Virus record (IMG/VR): IMGVR_UViG_2703718778_000005
Strand: one strand, 5' to 3'
Origin: a virus
Lineage: Duplodnaviria; Heunggongvirae; Uroviricota; Caudoviricetes
DNA: 8,280 nucleotides
This document shows, piece after piece, positions 4,716 through 8,280 of the stretch. The notes under the pieces are model-generated. The model did not search any database, had not been told where the DNA came from, and saw only the letters and a program-made list of their open reading frames with translations. A program made the translations under genes and the position numbers. Position 1 is the first letter of the stretch; every line of letters begins with the position of its first letter.

Positions 4716-4748
4716 CGATTTTTCGGTTTAATGACATGGGTACTGTAA

Positions 4749-4769
4749 CACCCCGCATAACGCGGGGTG
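4749..4769 (-). other. GC-rich hairpin (8-bp stem, 5-nt loop) downstream of int; weak or non-canonical terminator, or att-arm structure
   Basis: caccccgc-ataac-gcggggtg is a perfect 8-bp inverted repeat. On the minus strand it is followed by TTACAGTACCC, so there is no U-tract and it is not a canonical intrinsic terminator. Confidence 0.35.
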
Positions 4770-4775
4770 CTGAAC

Positions 4776-4788
4776 TATCAACAACTTA
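4776..4788. promoter_or_regulatory. Candidate IHF-binding site in the att arm
   Basis: TATCAACAACTTA fits the IHF consensus WATCAANNNNTTR exactly. A related motif ATCAACGAC recurs at 4806-4814. Confidence 0.25.
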
Positions 4789-4877
4789 GAGAAAACACCT
4801 TAAAAATCAACGACACCCAAAAGCGATATAAGCCGCTATTAAGTGCCATTAATTCAGTTCGCGTAGGCAATGCGTAG

Positions 4878-5858
4878 TCAAACACCCAGTCCTCCACCAA
4901 GCGGATTTAGCGTAATCGCGTGCTGAAGAAAGTCCGGCGAAAGATGCGCATAAATCATCGTTTGCTTGATGCTGGCGTGCCCCATGATTTGCTGAAGCGC
5001 GATAATGTTTCCTCCGTTCATCATGAACCAGCTGGCGAACGTGTGGCGAAGTACGTGCGTTGACTGGCCCCGTGGTAAGTCAGGTTTTACACGCCGCAAC
5101 TGCTCGCGGAACTGAGCATAGTTCACATCAAAGAACGGCCCCGTTTCGCAGGTTTTGATCTCCCGCTCCAGCGCTTCCGAGATCGGCACCGTCCTTTTTT
5201 TGCCGTTCTTCGTTTTCAGAAAGGTCACACGCCCATGATTGACCTGCTCTGCCCGTAGCGTGCTTCCCTCATTCCACCGCGCCCCGGTACTGAGACACAG
5301 CAACGCCACCCGACGATTATCACCCTCCAGAAATTCCAGCAATCGGGCGATCTCCTGCTTTGTAAGGTAAGTCATCGGCGGCTGCGCCTCCCGTAGCGGC
5401 AGCAAACCGCGACAGGGATTTTCAACCCGAAATTCACCGAGTTTAATCAACGCGGTAAACATACCGGACAAACGATAGATATCGCGGTTAATGGTTGATG
5501 CGCTAATGCCATCTGTAAGCCGTTCGCCGCGATGCCTGGCAATTTCACGCTTATCAAGCCGGTTAACAGCCGGATTACCCAGCGCCCTGATTGTTTTTTC
5601 CAGTTGTTGCCTTTCGATTGCGCCGTTCTCCAGTGTCTGACCATGCAACAGCCACCAGATATCCAGCAATTCCCCAAGTGTGCGGCGATCAGTACTTGCG
5701 CCGAGCCATTCTTTTTTCTCGACGTTTGCCATCACATACCGCTCAAACAGGATAGCTTCCTGTTTTTTCTTGAAACGTCTGCGTATGCGTTTGCCTTCAC
5801 GACCACGCGGGTAAATATCCACCTGATATTGCCCCCCTTCGAGCTTCTTAATCGTCAT
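4878..5858 (-). CDS. int: Tyrosine site-specific integrase, P2/186/HP1 family
   Basis: 326-aa ORF. N-terminus MTIKKLEGGQYQVDIYPRGREGKRIRRRFKKKQEA is typical of P2-family integrases. C-terminal catalytic signature is present: TGARWNE (Arg), HVLRHTFAS (His-x-x-Arg), MIYAHL (Tyr nucleophile). Minus-strand RBS GGAGGG 7 nt upstream of ATG 5856-5858. Confidence 0.93.
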   Translation of the reverse strand: MTIKKLEGGQYQVDIYPRGREGKRIRRRFKKKQEAILFERYVMANVEKKEWLGASTDRRTLGELLDIWWLLHGQTLENGAIERQQLEKTIRALGNPAVNRLDKREIARHRGERLTDGISASTINRDIYRLSGMFTALIKLGEFRVENPCRGLLPLREAQPPMTYLTKQEIARLLEFLEGDNRRVALLCLSTGARWNEGSTLRAEQVNHGRVTFLKTKNGKKRTVPISEALEREIKTCETGPFFDVNYAQFREQLRRVKPDLPRGQSTHVLRHTFASWFMMNGGNIIALQQIMGHASIKQTMIYAHLSPDFLQHAITLNPLGGGLGV

Positions 5859-5924
5859 AGCGAAGCCCTCCGGTTGACACCAGTGAAACCGTCTCTAACC
5901 AGTCAATAAAATCAAAATGTAACG

Positions 5925-6248
5925 TTAACCAGTTTTGCGGACGGAGCGGCGCGACGTTGCCACATCTTCGCGCCCATCAGGGGAGAGAGTCGGGGCAATC
6001 TGCCCTGATTCCGGCGCAGTAGTATCAGTCATCAGCCACAGGGCGTACTTCTGAAACCGTGGGTGTGTTGTGATTTTGAGCAAAATTTCACTACCGACAC
6101 CATCCCTTCTCCCTGTCTCGTACTGTTTTTGAGTACTGGCAGGGACACCTGTAAGATCAAAGAATTGGCTTCTGGATAACCCTTCTGCATCTCTTATCAA
6201 ACGAATTTTTTCTCCTATCGAGCTTGACAGGGGTTCATATGACACCAT
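5925..6248 (-). CDS. Immunity repressor, P2 C-family
   Basis: 107-aa ORF with helix-turn-helix-like segment LSRSQFFDLTGVPASTQKQYETG and a C-terminal block WLMTDTTAPESGQIAPTLSP...KTG that closely parallels P2 C (...APESGQIAP...GQKTG) as I recall it. Located just upstream of and co-oriented with int, as in P2. RBS GAGGG 6 nt before the ATG. Confidence 0.85.
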   Translation of the reverse strand: MVSYEPLSSSIGEKIRLIRDAEGLSRSQFFDLTGVPASTQKQYETGRRDGVGSEILLKITTHPRFQKYALWLMTDTTAPESGQIAPTLSPDGREDVATSRRSVRKTG

Positions 6249-6345
6249 ATATTGCCCTCATTGGTTTCAATTGACACCATTCAATTAATACCGCTATAAG
6301 CGGATATAAACCGCCAATAGCACCAGAAAAAGGGGATTATTACAC
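6249..6345. promoter_or_regulatory. Lysis-lysogeny switch region between divergent C and cox (early and repressor promoters with operators)
   Basis: 97-bp AT-rich gap between divergent start codons. Contains TTGACA (6271-6276), the palindrome CCGCTATAAGCGG (6291-6303) and tandem 9-mers TATAAGCGG / TATAAACCG (6295-6303, 6305-6313) spaced 10 bp apart. Confidence 0.5.
6271..6300 (+). promoter_or_regulatory. Candidate sigma70 early promoter (Pe-like) driving cox and downstream genes
   Basis: TTGACA at 6271-6276, 18-bp spacer, TATAAG at 6295-6300. The -10 sits inside the tandem TATAA(G/A)C(G/C)G repeats, as expected if the repressor occludes the -10. Confidence 0.3.
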
Positions 6346-6627
6346 ATGAGAGACAGAGAGCTGGAGCGATATATCAACATCGGCTACCCAATTGATGCCG
6401 TCCCCGGCCCCAAATTCGCCGAGATGATCGGTAAACCGGCATCCGCTGTGAGTGACATGATTTCAGACGGAAAACTACCAGTTATTAAATGGCAGAACCC
6501 TAACGCTCTACGTTCACGCGCTGAAAACTGGATCTACATACCAGAATTCAACAAAGCGATGCGCGAAGCATTCTTTGCTCGCCCGAAAGAGCAACGGGAC
6601 GCATGGTTGTTGTGGATTGGATTGTGA
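6346..6627 (+). CDS. cox: Cox-family excisionase / switch repressor (P2 Cox-like)
   Basis: 93-aa ORF. FAEMIGKPASAVSDMISDGKLPVI...WIYIPEFN...RPKEQRDAWLLWIGL parallels P2 Cox (FAKLIGKSTGAVRRMIDKGKLPVI...WVYLPAWN...RPKEIRDGWLMWLGL) as I recall it. Divergent from C. Confidence 0.85.
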   Translation: MRDRELERYINIGYPIDAVPGPKFAEMIGKPASAVSDMISDGKLPVIKWQNPNALRSRAENWIYIPEFNKAMREAFFARPKEQRDAWLLWIGL

Positions 6628-6703
6628 TTACGAACGGGAAGTGACAGCAAAGTAAACAACAATATTAACAAAAGCCAGGGGGACAAAATTAGATTTTGGG
6701 GGA

Positions 6704-6952
6704 ATGAAGGAGAGAGAAGTGAGCAGTAATACACCAGGTTTACGGGATATGCAAATCATAGATAACCGCCCCACAGAAAAAGAGTTATACAGCCTTTTTC
6801 GGTTCATCATCGTACGCCAACAATCAGGCAGACTGGATCCAACACGAGCAAGCGAAGAATGGAGACAGGTATTTGCCGATTATGAAGCGGATGTAATTGG
6901 GTGTGTCATGGCTGAAGTGGTTTTTAGGCTAACAAGAGACGAATCACTGTAA
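6704..6952 (+). CDS. Hypothetical early protein in the orf78-equivalent position after cox; start uncertain
   Basis: 82-aa ORF from ATG 6704, or 77 aa from in-frame GTG 6719, which has a much better RBS (AAGGAG at 6707-6712, 6-nt spacer). No family recognised. Confidence 0.5.
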   Translation: MKEREVSSNTPGLRDMQIIDNRPTEKELYSLFRFIIVRQQSGRLDPTRASEEWRQVFADYEADVIGCVMAEVVFRLTRDESL

Positions 6953-6977
6953 TCATCACATGAGGATCGGCTGAAGA

Positions 6978-7328
6978 ATGAAACAACAACGAAACGCGCA
7001 CCCCCATAACAACACTGAACGCCACAAATTGCGCAGTGGCGCAGAACGCAACGTTGCGAGTCACTCCCACCGTAAAACTGGTACGACCGCAACTACCGAA
7101 ATCCACGCAACACCAGACGGCCATCCGGTAAAACAAACCGGCAAGCACACCTGGGCGATTGGCGACACTGGCATCGTTATTCACAAAAGTTTTCGTAGCC
7201 CTGTTACTGGCAGATTTAATTTTACCCTGACTCGCGGAGATGATTACTTCGGACAGGACTTCACATTTTTTGAAGCGTTAAGAACGGTCGATCGGTTAAT
7301 GACTGGTCGTAATTTTCACGCTAAATGA
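6978..7328 (+). CDS. Hypothetical early protein with basic, His/Thr/Asn-rich low-complexity N-terminal half
   Basis: 116-aa ORF co-oriented with the early operon, GAGGA 10 nt upstream. N-terminal ~55 aa are low complexity (NAHPHNNTERHKLRSGAERNVASHSHRKTGTTATTEIHATPDGHPVKQTGKH); C-terminal half looks globular. A perfect 12-bp palindrome CGCAACGTTGCG lies inside at 7047-7058. Confidence 0.45.
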   Translation: MKQQRNAHPHNNTERHKLRSGAERNVASHSHRKTGTTATTEIHATPDGHPVKQTGKHTWAIGDTGIVIHKSFRSPVTGRFNFTLTRGDDYFGQDFTFFEALRTVDRLMTGRNFHAK

Positions 7329-7341
7329 TACAGATGAAAAC

Positions 7342-7557
7342 ATGGAAACATACAAAATTAAAAATATTGAACACCATGACGGTTTTTTCAGCACTGAACA
7401 TGTTGCTTGTGTTGTCAGGATTTTCAATGAAGTAGATGTGATTTTGAAGCAAAACATAAAGCTTGAAATCATCGCAAAAAGCGAAGCCGACGCCATTGAA
7501 ATAAAAAAAGCTATTGAACGCCAGATAATGCCGTTGACAAGTATCATTGCATTTTAA
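7342..7557 (+). CDS. Hypothetical small protein (71 aa), first gene of the AT-rich cassette
   Basis: ORF in a region of roughly 30-35% GC by eye. No strong SD; starts 14 nt after the preceding stop. No family recognised. Confidence 0.42.
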   Translation: METYKIKNIEHHDGFFSTEHVACVVRIFNEVDVILKQNIKLEIIAKSEADAIEIKKAIERQIMPLTSIIAF

Positions 7558-7575
7558 GCAACAGGAAAAATAACC

Positions 7576-7815
7576 ATGACCAGAAATTACAAAGAAATCG
7601 TCAATCAGATCATTAAGGCTTACAGCCACCGCATCGCAAAATCACCCGAGTTCATACGCATAATGGAGACGCGCTCATTAATGCAAGGACTGAACGGGTT
7701 GGCACTGGCCGCATTGGCAGCTAACGATATTGATGCCACTATCGAAATAAACAACCTGTTATTAGACATTGAAAAAGGCGGAAACATAGAACCCTACAAT
7801 CTGGAGGCCGCATGA
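7576..7815 (+). CDS. Hypothetical small protein (79 aa), probably helical
   Basis: ATG 7576 with AGGA 9 nt upstream. The stop overlaps the next start as ATGA at 7812-7815. No family recognised. Confidence 0.5.
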   Translation: MTRNYKEIVNQIIKAYSHRIAKSPEFIRIMETRSLMQGLNGLALAALAANDIDATIEINNLLLDIEKGGNIEPYNLEAA

Positions 7816-7937
7816 GCGTATTTCTTTCGTGGGTAATTCTGATTATCTCCGTGCTTATGACAATCGGCATTATGCGAATTATCCACACACTGAAGGATAT
7901 CGAATTATTCTTTACCGGCGATAAACGCCGTAAATAA
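7812..7937 (+). CDS. Small membrane peptide (41 aa, one predicted TM helix); not in the supplied ORF track
   Basis: MSVFLSWVILIISVLMTIGIMRIIHTLKDIELFFTGDKRRK has a hydrophobic ~20-aa core and a charged C-terminus. GGAGG at 7803-7807; start overlaps the upstream stop (ATGA), suggesting translational coupling. Confidence 0.35.
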   Translation: MSVFLSWVILIISVLMTIGIMRIIHTLKDIELFFTGDKRRK

Positions 7938-7949
7938 AGCGAAAACCTT

Positions 7950-8051
7950 ATGAAGAATGTAAAAGCAATACTCACCATCGCCACTGTATGGGTGATATTT
8001 CAGGTGAGTGCGCTTATCTGGTTAGCCCTGAAGAATCTGGGGATAATCTGA
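7950..8051 (+). CDS. Small membrane peptide (33 aa, one predicted TM helix); not in the supplied ORF track
   Basis: MKNVKAILTIATVWVIFQVSALIWLALKNLGII. Weak RBS; 12 nt after the previous stop. Support is weaker than for the 41-aa peptide. Confidence 0.25.
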   Translation: MKNVKAILTIATVWVIFQVSALIWLALKNLGII

Positions 8052-8101
8052 AGCCGAAAGCAGGCGCGGAATAACACCAGAAAACACACGAACAATTAAT
8101 T

Positions 8102-8117
8102 AAGGCATTCATGCCTT
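8102..8117 (+). other. Short inverted repeat AAGGCAT-tc-ATGCCTT between the micro-ORFs and the next gene
   Basis: Near-perfect palindrome; a T-run (tctttttt, 8131-8138) lies 13 nt downstream, so it is not a canonical terminator. Possible operator or attenuator. Confidence 0.2.
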
Positions 8118-8151
8118 CGGATTCCCTTTGTCTTTTTTCAGGAGCCAACAA

Positions 8152-8280
8152 ATGAGAACAGTCGAATCACCCGCAACCGCCAGACCAGTTAACCATCATG
8201 CACATATCAGCATGGCCGCAAGAAAAGCCGAGCGTGCGCATATCTGCGAATTGCTGCGCGAGCTGACTGAGACAGCGAAA
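8152..8280 (+). CDS. Hypothetical early protein, N-terminal 43 codons only (continues beyond window)
   Basis: ATG 8152 with AGGAG at 8140-8144 and a 7-nt spacer. Open frame MRTVESPATARPVNHHAHISMAARKAERAHICELLRELTETAK runs to the window end. GC content returns to ~55%. Confidence 0.45.
   Translation, partial: MRTVESPATARPVNHHAHISMAARKAERAHICELLRELTETAK

Follow-up and report, generated by a model that had tools for sequence, protein, structure and literature searches.

Sequence comparison points to a conserved gene pair and two optional inserts in the early operon of a P88-like Escherichia coli prophage

In phages 186 and P2, small genes (fil/dhr and orf78/B, respectively) are found in the early operon after cox/apl (plus cII) and before a sequence made of TTAATTAA, a hairpin and a T-run, which precedes an AGGAG-led gene. 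The 186 genes provide early host-directed functions, fil blocking division and dhr blocking host replication. In phage P88 (Xuanwuvirus, Peduoviridae), the corresponding order is int, C, cox, DUF4761, a slot gene, DUF4754 and an overlapped membrane micropeptide. A search of the literature on DUF4754, DUF4761, their Pfam entries, P88 and Xuanwuvirus returned no functional report.

The DNA analyzed here (the window, 8,280 nucleotides, IMG/VR record IMGVR_UViG_2703718778_000005) displays the same gene order as P88 and is assigned on sequence grounds to a P88-like, Xuanwuvirus-type prophage lineage of the P2 family. An earlier note had described its segment 7342-8051 as a single accessory cassette of four genes. 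Rather than a self-contained cassette, the segment is probably that part of the early lytic operon which lies nearest the promoter in a P88-like E. coli prophage. As read from the comparison of related loci, it consists of a conserved pair, ORF2 and ORF3, and of two separate optional inserts, ORF1 and ORF4. The relevant features are as follows.

6224..6253, plus strand: Pe-like early promoter (TTGACA, 18 nt, TATATT; 11 of 12 consensus positions)
6346..6627, plus strand: cox, first gene of the early operon (Pfam Phage_Cox, 8.2e-24; phrog_272, 6.5e-37)
6978..7328, plus strand: DUF4761 protein, 116 aa (PF15958, 3.4e-31; phrog_2492, 2.9e-35)
7342-7557, plus strand: ORF1, 71 aa
7576-7815, plus strand: ORF2, 79 aa
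7812-7937, plus strand: ORF3, 41 aa
7936..8068, no strand assigned: insertion/deletion segment of about 133 bp with ORF4, defined by alignment, with AATAA microhomology at its bounds
7950-8051, plus strand: ORF4, 33 aa
8070..8152, plus strand: conserved intergenic element, putative first terminator of the early operon, defined by position

The physical description given in the earlier note was largely accurate. The coordinates of the four plus-strand ORFs are exact, the backbone order upstream of ORF1 is int, C, cox, an 82-aa ORF and the 116-aa ORF as claimed, and the packing is tight, with intergenic gaps of 13, 18, -4 and 12 nt. The announced ATGA stop-start overlap between ORF2 and ORF3 is present at 7812-7815.

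In order to compare the locus across prophages, as the earlier note had suggested, a set of 88 related P88-like loci, 80 of them from IMG/VR, was gathered through DUF4761 alignment. The IMG/VR loci were selected by DUF4761 similarity, and many of them are near-identical prophages of E. coli; the counts given below therefore overstate independent sampling. When the block, ORF1 and ORF2 were searched by megablast and tblastn in 50,697 phage records, no match was obtained; the relatives present in these records are too divergent for such searches and were reached only via DUF4761 and P88 gp06. Downstream of DUF4761, a DUF4754 or DUF4754-like gene is present in 88/88 loci; the DUF4761 gene is itself a conserved backbone element that marks the left border of a variable slot. 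Among sequenced phages, both families are confined to P88-like records (12 in the case of DUF4761). The selection estimates obtained from these alignments are below one (dN/dS < 1) in all four frames and indicate purifying selection.

ORF2 had been left unrecognized in the earlier note; it belongs instead to Pfam DUF4754 (PF15946; 32.8 bits versus a cut-off of 27, residues 1-76 on the 80-position model) and to phrog_2549 (E 2.7e-24). P88 gp06 is a member of the same Pfam and PHROG families, yet shares only 29% identity with it. The solubility announced for the 71-aa and 79-aa proteins is borne out by Kyte-Doolittle analysis for ORF1 and ORF2, the latter displaying a dN/dS of 0.25-0.47. Structure prediction, which had been proposed as a check, was partly productive: a usable AF2 model was obtained for ORF2 (pLDDT 82; helices 5-22, 25-48 and 52-66), which is thus modeled as a cytoplasmic three-helix bundle, whereas that of ORF1 was unusable (pLDDT 46) and too poor for a fold search. 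A Foldseek comparison of the ORF2 model with PDB and BFVD retrieved only generic helical-bundle matches (E > 0.7), none of them specific. PDB sequence searches matched DUF4754 to designed helical repeats, a resemblance judged to stem from idealized-helix composition and not from homology.

The overlap that opens ORF3 is preceded by a GGAGG Shine-Dalgarno site 6 nt upstream. One strongly hydrophobic 19-residue segment is present in ORF3 and in ORF4 (Kyte-Doolittle 2.6 and 2.15, respectively), in agreement with the two single-helix micropeptides described before. In ORF3 this hydrophobic core spans residues 3-21 and is accompanied by a basic C-terminal tail; the product is predicted to be a micropeptide that crosses the membrane once, with its translation coupled to that of ORF2. 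The basic tail suggests an N-out/C-in topology, which would place it in the cytoplasm, beside ORF2. ORF3 aligns lengthwise with P88 gp07, a 37-aa membrane protein (MSIFISWLVLIISVACAIGIMRIIHSVKKIERFFTGE), its basic tail being 4 residues longer. Its dN/dS is 0.10-0.38 among informative pairs, with third-position variation. A 4-nt overlap with the DUF4754 stop is shown by ORF3 or a close homologue in 83-84 of the 88 loci (31 distinct sequences), and the other four carry an unrelated single-pass membrane ORF at this position. As the equivalents of gp06 and gp07, ORF2 and ORF3 belong to the backbone of the lineage. DUF4754 alleles that are 27% identical to ORF2 occur with ORF3 peptides at least 90% identical, and a tight allele-specific complex between the two products is therefore not favored. 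The low GC of ORF3 goes along with many Ile, Leu and Phe codons. On the minus strand, ORFs of 102 and 81 aa were also considered and rejected, being interrupted by stops in relatives.

ORF1 occupies the slot between DUF4761 and DUF4754, where P88 carries the unrelated 92-aa gp05 (homology between the two was rejected at an hhalign probability of 0.2%). Within the 88 loci, this slot contains gp05-like genes in 54 cases, ORF1-like genes in 6 and no ORF of at least 30 aa in 21; a DUF4754-like paralogue is another occupant in some loci. ORF1 represents a rare family, limited to prophages of E. coli. Its named homologues are from E. coli only, word-indexed and exhaustive profile searches retrieved close E. 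coli relatives only, and just 3 real clusters emerged when 1.84 billion representatives were searched with a profile. No match was found for ORF1 in Pfam, PHROG, NCBIfam, PADLOC or PDB, nor for any individual member of the family in Pfam and PHROG scans. Its dN/dS is 0.36-0.49, reaching 0.74 against the saturated homologue of locus L006 (26% identity), and its Shine-Dalgarno site, GGTG in the homologues, is weakened to GATG in this window. The likeliest view of ORF1, taken with low confidence, is that of an interchangeable early accessory protein directed at a host factor, possibly with an anti-defence role. An alternative 36-aa ORF at 7325-7435, with an ATGA overlap with the DUF4761 stop, was rejected as its ATG is CTG in loci L002 and L004.

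The -35 box of the Pe-like site lies within the 5' end of the C gene and its -10 box is located 93 nt ahead of the cox ATG, a spacing identical to that annotated for P2 Pe; the site is presumed to be the promoter for all downstream genes. The block begins 1.1 kb downstream of this C-repressed early promoter and ahead of the terminator-like element. A simple sigma-70 consensus scan detected no plus-strand promoter-like site within 6254-8280, a method that could overlook a weak promoter inside the block with activity in the lysogen. The counts of promoter- and terminator-like sites do not exceed those of shuffled sequence, and the sole plus-strand terminator-like match falls inside the DUF4761 gene. 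The element at 8070..8152 comprises TTAATTAA (stops in three frames), the palindrome AAGGCAT-TC-ATGCCTT at 8102-8117, a T-run and AGGAG, directly after which the next gene starts at 8153. It is nearly invariant among loci with differing flanks, and its layout and position are those of the annotated P2 terminator after B and of 186 tR1. Its role as a terminator is assigned from position only, because the RNA fold of 8052-8155 is not more stable than that of shuffled sequence (z -0.17). The element is thus regarded as the putative right boundary of the promoter-proximal segment. The gene at 8153 gave no Pfam match, so that its equivalence to P2 Orf80/DUF2732 is not supported.

Two explanations that concern the nature of the block itself have to be weighed against the reading as a conserved pair with two inserts. 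According to one of them, ORF4 and possibly ORF1 are not genes, the segment of about 133 bp being a spacer that encodes no protein, or a leader with a regulatory role in the terminator region, in which the frame is incidental; this is an appreciable, though unlikely, possibility. The segment is present in 12 of the 88 loci and cleanly missing from L002, L004 and L006. ORF4 starts 13 nt past the ORF3 stop and lacks a Shine-Dalgarno site (those of ORF1 to ORF3 are present), it is left without PGAP annotation and a single named variant exists in public records, its C-terminus is shifted by a 1-nt deletion in several loci, and its dN/dS of 0.21-0.28 is derived from just 15 substitutions. However, these substitutions, counted against L012, are 8 synonymous and 7 non-synonymous, far off the ratio of about 1:3 expected without selection. 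In addition, the indel of L016 is an in-frame insertion of 3 nt, and the frameshift alters only the last 5 residues and leaves the entire hydrophobic helix intact. As for ORF1, the dN/dS values given above, the conserved Shine-Dalgarno site and the existence of the distant L006 homologue argue for a gene. ORF4 is consequently retained as an optional single-helix micro-ORF that is probably coding. The other explanation, close to that of the earlier note, takes the four ORFs as a single moron-like cassette, acquired horizontally, that codes for a defence, exclusion or toxin-antitoxin system not described before. The tight packing and the base composition of the block speak for it, its GC being 0.401, below the 0.492 of the upstream part of the prophage and the 0.529 of a related prophage. 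The sharp AT-rich break reported earlier exists on average; it is nevertheless uneven (ORF1 0.343, ORF3 0.389, ORF2 0.446, ORF4 0.431), ORF2 and ORF4 having nearly the same GC as the upstream 82-aa ORF (0.442). The same dip extends across the homologous region gp05-gp07 of P88, and is thus a feature of the lineage and not a sign of recent acquisition of the block. A 100% identical block also occurs in prophages with another integrase, repressor and insertion site, which indicates that the block moves by recombination, and both ORF1 and ORF4 are patchy in relatives. ORF2 and ORF3, in contrast, are found in essentially every relative, so that the accessory label holds for ORF1 and ORF4 only, and the outcome named beforehand as refuting the cassette, homology to early proteins conserved in all relatives, applies to two of the four ORFs. 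Nor do the inserts travel together: ORF1 occurs without ORF4 in L002, L004 and L006, ORF4 without ORF1 in 10 loci, and all four ORFs are combined in just 2 of the 88 loci and in 11 of 5426 E. coli genomes. Presence or absence of the block as a unit between conserved flanks was not observed among the 88 loci; recombination breakpoints in E. coli genomes are located near 7300, 7807 and 7938, at single gene junctions. A promoter and a terminator belonging to the block were likewise not found by the simple consensus scan, which weak signals could escape, and PADLOC gave no match. A moron-like cassette is considered extremely improbable.

Two further explanations concern the function of the pair and of its neighbors. 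ORF2 and ORF3 could form a toxin-antitoxin or abortive-infection pair comparable to GhoS-GhoT, ORF3 being a membrane toxin neutralized by ORF2 and ORF4 perhaps a second toxin. The succession of a soluble gene and a small hydrophobic peptide gene with an ATGA overlap is in keeping with this, and DUF4754 is in every case followed by a membrane ORF, even when that ORF has been exchanged for an unrelated one, which suggests a functional pairing. However, the pair is part of a repressed lytic operon and is devoid of its own promoter, it belongs to the universal backbone of these phages whereas toxin-antitoxin modules are sporadic, and DUF4754 alleles are freely exchanged against a near-constant ORF3. 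No toxin-antitoxin family was found among the ORFs in Pfam, NCBIfam or PADLOC. The sole antisense promoter-like site, located within ORF3 (7863 to 7836), was rejected as it is absent from relatives, and Rfam gave no match at E <= 1, both of which argue against a type I system. Such a pair is judged quite unlikely. Exclusion factors often take the form of small inner-membrane proteins, and ORF3 and ORF4 are predicted proteins of this type in a temperate phage; either or both might therefore be superinfection-exclusion or conversion proteins, made in the lysogen and blocking phage DNA entry in the manner of T4 Imm or HK97 gp15. Against this very unlikely alternative stands the location of the block in the C-repressed early operon, where the genes are co-oriented and tightly packed and no internal promoter was found, whereas the P2 conversion genes old and tin sit outside the early operon and have their own transcript starts. 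As for the defence or exclusion role that the earlier note raised as speculation, the same location argues against such a function being expressed in the lysogen, and PADLOC-DB 2.0 contains no family matching the four ORFs or the two upstream ORFs at E <= 1.

The reading preferred here is that of an early lytic function. Since the block lies within the C-repressed Pe operon and before the terminator-like element, it is probably expressed early in the lytic cycle and not as a defence of the lysogen. All four ORFs would be transcribed from Pe and shut off by the C repressor in the lysogen, and their products would appear, along with Cox, only during the opening minutes of infection or induction, the genes being placed before the first terminator. 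ORF3, alone or with ORF2, may then bind and modulate a host inner-membrane protein in the course of early host takeover; this is the likeliest mode of action, proposed by analogy and with low confidence. The more cautious statements of the earlier note, that the genes are uncharacterized and that host takeover is a possibility, stand. A broader proposal, improbable as it may be, is that the DUF4754 protein and its micropeptide form a two-part early inner-membrane module, for example causing division arrest or disabling a membrane protease or transporter, that it depends on a membrane partner so strongly that unrelated membrane ORFs have taken the place of this partner at least twice, and that the slot is an exchange site for anti-host or anti-defence genes, of which ORF1 would be an example. 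The permanent association of the DUF4754 gene with a downstream membrane micro-ORF of three unrelated sequence forms provides a testable hypothesis for two DUFs and for a phage micropeptide class that annotation pipelines tend to overlook. The resolution of an apparent cassette into a pair and two inserts shows what should be studied jointly (ORF2 and ORF3) or singly (ORF1 and ORF4). The significance is otherwise modest: the prophage lineage is common in E. coli, and these small genes of its early region are already on deposit under hypothetical or DUF names.

Several described systems can be set beside the pair. GhoS/GhoT, a type V toxin-antitoxin system of E. coli, likewise combines in one operon an upstream soluble gene and a gene for a small hydrophobic membrane peptide. 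It is not homologous to ORF2/ORF3: GhoT has two helices, GhoS has an RNase fold and not a three-helix bundle, and GhoST is chromosomal with its own promoter, whereas ORF2/ORF3 are phage backbone genes inside a repressed lytic operon. AcrZ, MgtR, MgtS and SPO1 Gp56 are single-helix inner-membrane proteins of 30-80 aa that bind a larger membrane protein, Gp56 being an early phage protein that blocks division; none is related in sequence to ORF3 or ORF4. Against 186 Fil, Dhr and CII and P2 Orf78, B and Orf80-83, profiles of ORF1, DUF4754, ORF3 and DUF4761 reached only some 0-4 bits, and Pfam Phage_186_Fil (PF10893) matches Fil but none of the ORFs of the window, so that the analogy with host takeover in these phages is positional only; Fil and Dhr, unlike ORF3, do not belong to the single-pass membrane micropeptides. 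P88, identical in gene order up to the micropeptide, is without ORF4 and differs in its downstream genes. With 186 fil/dhr and P2 orf78/B, the window shares small overlapping genes placed at the same position of the early operon.

The left 4.7 kb of the window is common to more than 5,000 E. coli genomes, with 90-99% identity, and a P2-family prophage starts directly past prpC. The features are arranged as follows.

Features of the window
Left 4.7 kb, minus strand: prpE, prpD and prpC
4878-5858, minus strand: integrase
5925-6248, minus strand: C-type repressor
6346-6627, plus strand: cox
6704-6952: 82-aa ORF, between cox and the DUF4761 gene
6978-7328: DUF4761 protein, directly before ORF1-ORF4
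7342-7557, plus strand: ORF1, 71 aa
7576-7815, plus strand: ORF2, 79 aa
7812-7937, plus strand: ORF3, 41 aa
7950-8051, plus strand: ORF4, 33 aa

The coordinates proposed for the four ORFs in the earlier note were all confirmed, as was the ATGA overlap between ORF2 and ORF3, with GGAGG located 6 nt upstream. The Shine-Dalgarno sequence of ORF2 is AGGAAA, that of ORF1 reads GGTG in homologues and is weakened to GATG in the window, and none was present when searched for in front of ORF4. Nei-Gojobori estimates of dN/dS against homologous loci amount to 0.36-0.49 for ORF1, 0.25-0.47 for ORF2, 0.10-0.38 for ORF3 and 0.21-0.28 for ORF4 (the latter with 15 substitutions only), showing that purifying selection acts on all four; the rival reading of ORF4 as non-coding is given little weight. 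Two minus-strand ORFs longer than the plus-strand genes, at 7321-7629 (102 aa) and 7739-7984 (81 aa), were discarded: stop codons interrupt the former frame in two related prophage loci (L002 and L004), and related loci have none on the minus strand that is open to such lengths. An alternative 36-aa frame was rejected as well, as it is not conserved. Coordinates, Shine-Dalgarno data, dN/dS and the lack of conservation of competing frames together argue that the four ORFs are real.

ORF1 and ORF2 are soluble, as claimed, and ORF3 and ORF4 each display one strongly hydrophobic helix with a net charge of +3. The GC content is indeed lower in 7342-8051 (0.401, versus 0.492 in the upstream prophage part and 0.529 in a related whole prophage). 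The description of a sharp composition break was nevertheless overstated, since the dip originates mainly from ORF1 (0.343) and ORF3 (0.389) and is also seen in the homologous genes of Escherichia phage P88.

None of the four products had been recognised, which holds for ORF1 but not for ORF2, a member of Pfam DUF4754 (32.8 bits; cut-off 27) and of phrog_2549. The AlphaFold2 model of ORF2 is a three-helix bundle (pLDDT 82) whose fold and sequence retrieved generic helical matches only from solved and viral structures. ORF1 has no family match in Pfam, PHROGs, NCBIfam, PADLOC or PDB. Among 1.84 billion representatives, searched exhaustively with a profile, only three real clusters were found; all named relatives of ORF1 are from E. 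coli, and its model is unusable (pLDDT 46). ORF3 has numerous E. coli homologues annotated as 'hypothetical protein', while ORF4 is not annotated by PGAP and has one named variant only in public data.

In P88, the gene order is int, C, cox, gp04 (DUF4761), gp05 (92 aa), gp06 (DUF4754) and gp07, which encodes a 37-aa membrane protein and overlaps gp06. TBLASTN queries with DUF4761 and gp06 matched only P88-like phages of Escherichia and Citrobacter; 80 further loci were fetched via the DUF4761 alignment and 88 were analysed in all. A DUF4754 or DUF4754-like gene lies 3' of the DUF4761 gene in every one of them, and 83-84 have an ORF3-type peptide (31 distinct sequences) that starts 4 nt inside the DUF4754 stop. 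ORF2 and ORF3 thus form a conserved, overlapped pair. In the remaining four loci, the position straight after DUF4754 is taken by a single-pass membrane ORF of unrelated sequence, and the membrane partner looks to have been swapped non-homologously there.

Membrane ORFs replacing ORF3 in four related loci
L006, 6050-6154: 34 aa, overlapped by ATGA
L017, 4139-4351: phrog_19198 match
L065, 4132-4317: phrog_19198 match
L085, 4102-4317: phrog_19198 match
(The last three measure 61-70 aa.)

The space between the DUF4761 and DUF4754 genes is variable. It holds gp05-like genes in 54 of the 88 loci, ORF1-like genes in six, remnants in five and an 84-aa protein in L035, L019, L034 (3144-3398) and L052, of which L050 retains a 47-aa remnant. 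The C-terminal half of the 84-aa protein is DUF4754-like (hhalign 78%, E 1.8e-5), and the protein may be a diverged tandem duplicate. Most remaining loci lack a slot gene and show a gap of 18-19 nt only. A common origin of the ORF1 and gp05 families was considered and rejected, the two being unrelated. ORF4 is carried on an indel of about 133 bp (7936-8068) with AATAA microhomology at each end, present in 12/88 loci; it has an in-frame 3-nt insertion in L016 and, in several loci, a 1-nt deletion altering the last five residues only. ORF1 occurs without ORF4 in L002, L004 and L006, and ORF4 without ORF1 in ten loci. Both are therefore optional and mutually independent, and the cassette envisaged as a four-gene unit breaks down into these two genes and the conserved ORF2/ORF3.

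A block of 801 bp from the window recurs at 100% identity in three E. coli genomes, next to nadA, in prophages with another integrase, repressor and insertion site; other genomes match only 7300-7938 or 7807-8100. These partial matches and the swapped genes past cox point to exchange gene by gene. The 82-aa ORF has no match in Pfam, PHROG, NCBIfam or PADLOC, and prophages with the identical downstream block share no more than its 3' part, from about 6778 onwards, indicating a recombination junction inside or adjoining it. At the prpC-adjacent site (4716-4877; L004/L005), the int-C-cox module of strain JNEC-KY171 is 98.5% identical and joined to a different early region, so that modules were exchanged just past cox.

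By analogy with P2 biology, transcription from the early promoter Pe, repressed by C in the lysogen, would confine expression to early lytic development. ORF3 is predicted to insert N-out/C-in, so that its basic, amphipathic tail would reach into the cytoplasm, close to ORF2. Speculatively, the pair might exert a takeover function on a host inner-membrane protein, and ORF1 might act against the host or its defences as an exchangeable early protein. Nearly the same ORF3 accompanies DUF4754 alleles that share only 27% identity, which speaks against a tight ORF2-ORF3 complex. Low weight is given to readings of these genes as a toxin-antitoxin system or as an exclusion function. The idea of an undescribed system was not borne out: these are small, uncharacterised early genes from a prophage of the P2 family, already deposited as hypothetical or DUF proteins, and moderate interest is confined to the fact that DUF4754 is invariably paired with a membrane micro-ORF. 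The literature searched does not mention DUF4754, DUF4761, the Pfam accessions or the peptides, and that on P88 or Xuanwuvirus does not address these genes.

In related prophages, the same operon encodes, beyond the window end and after a few more genes, a 75-aa 'ParE family toxin-like protein' (21674-21901 in locus L001). Its neighbours are a 3'-5' exonuclease and a Dam methylase, and its surroundings contain no annotated gene that would be an obvious antitoxin.

A strong promoter-like site at 6224-6253 (TTGACA, 18 nt, TATATT), whose -35 falls within the start of C and whose -10 lies 93 nt upstream of the cox ATG, has the geometry of the annotated P2 Pe. Promoter- and terminator-like sites in 5800-8280 are not more frequent than in shuffled sequence, no plus-strand promoter-like site was found downstream of Pe in this region, and an antisense one inside ORF3 was rejected as not conserved. 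Rfam returned no family match. The 83-bp intergenic segment 8070-8152 is nearly invariant among loci with differing flanks. It consists of TTAATTAA, with stops in all three frames, followed by the palindrome AAGGCAT-TC-ATGCCTT (8102-8117; perfect 7-bp, 2-nt spacer), a T-run, AGGAG and the ATG at 8153. The stability of its RNA fold is not unusual. The annotated terminator after P2 gene B and tR1 of phage 186, after fil and dhr, share its layout and position, and 8070-8152 probably serves as the first terminator in the early operon. With Pe upstream and this element just downstream as in P2 and 186, the four ORFs occupy the part of the early operon nearest to its promoter. Against all early proteins of P2 and 186, family profiles from the window gave scores of about 0-4 bits, and the equivalence is, on this analysis, positional only; the corresponding segment of 186 carries apl, cII, the division inhibitor fil and the host replication inhibitor dhr.
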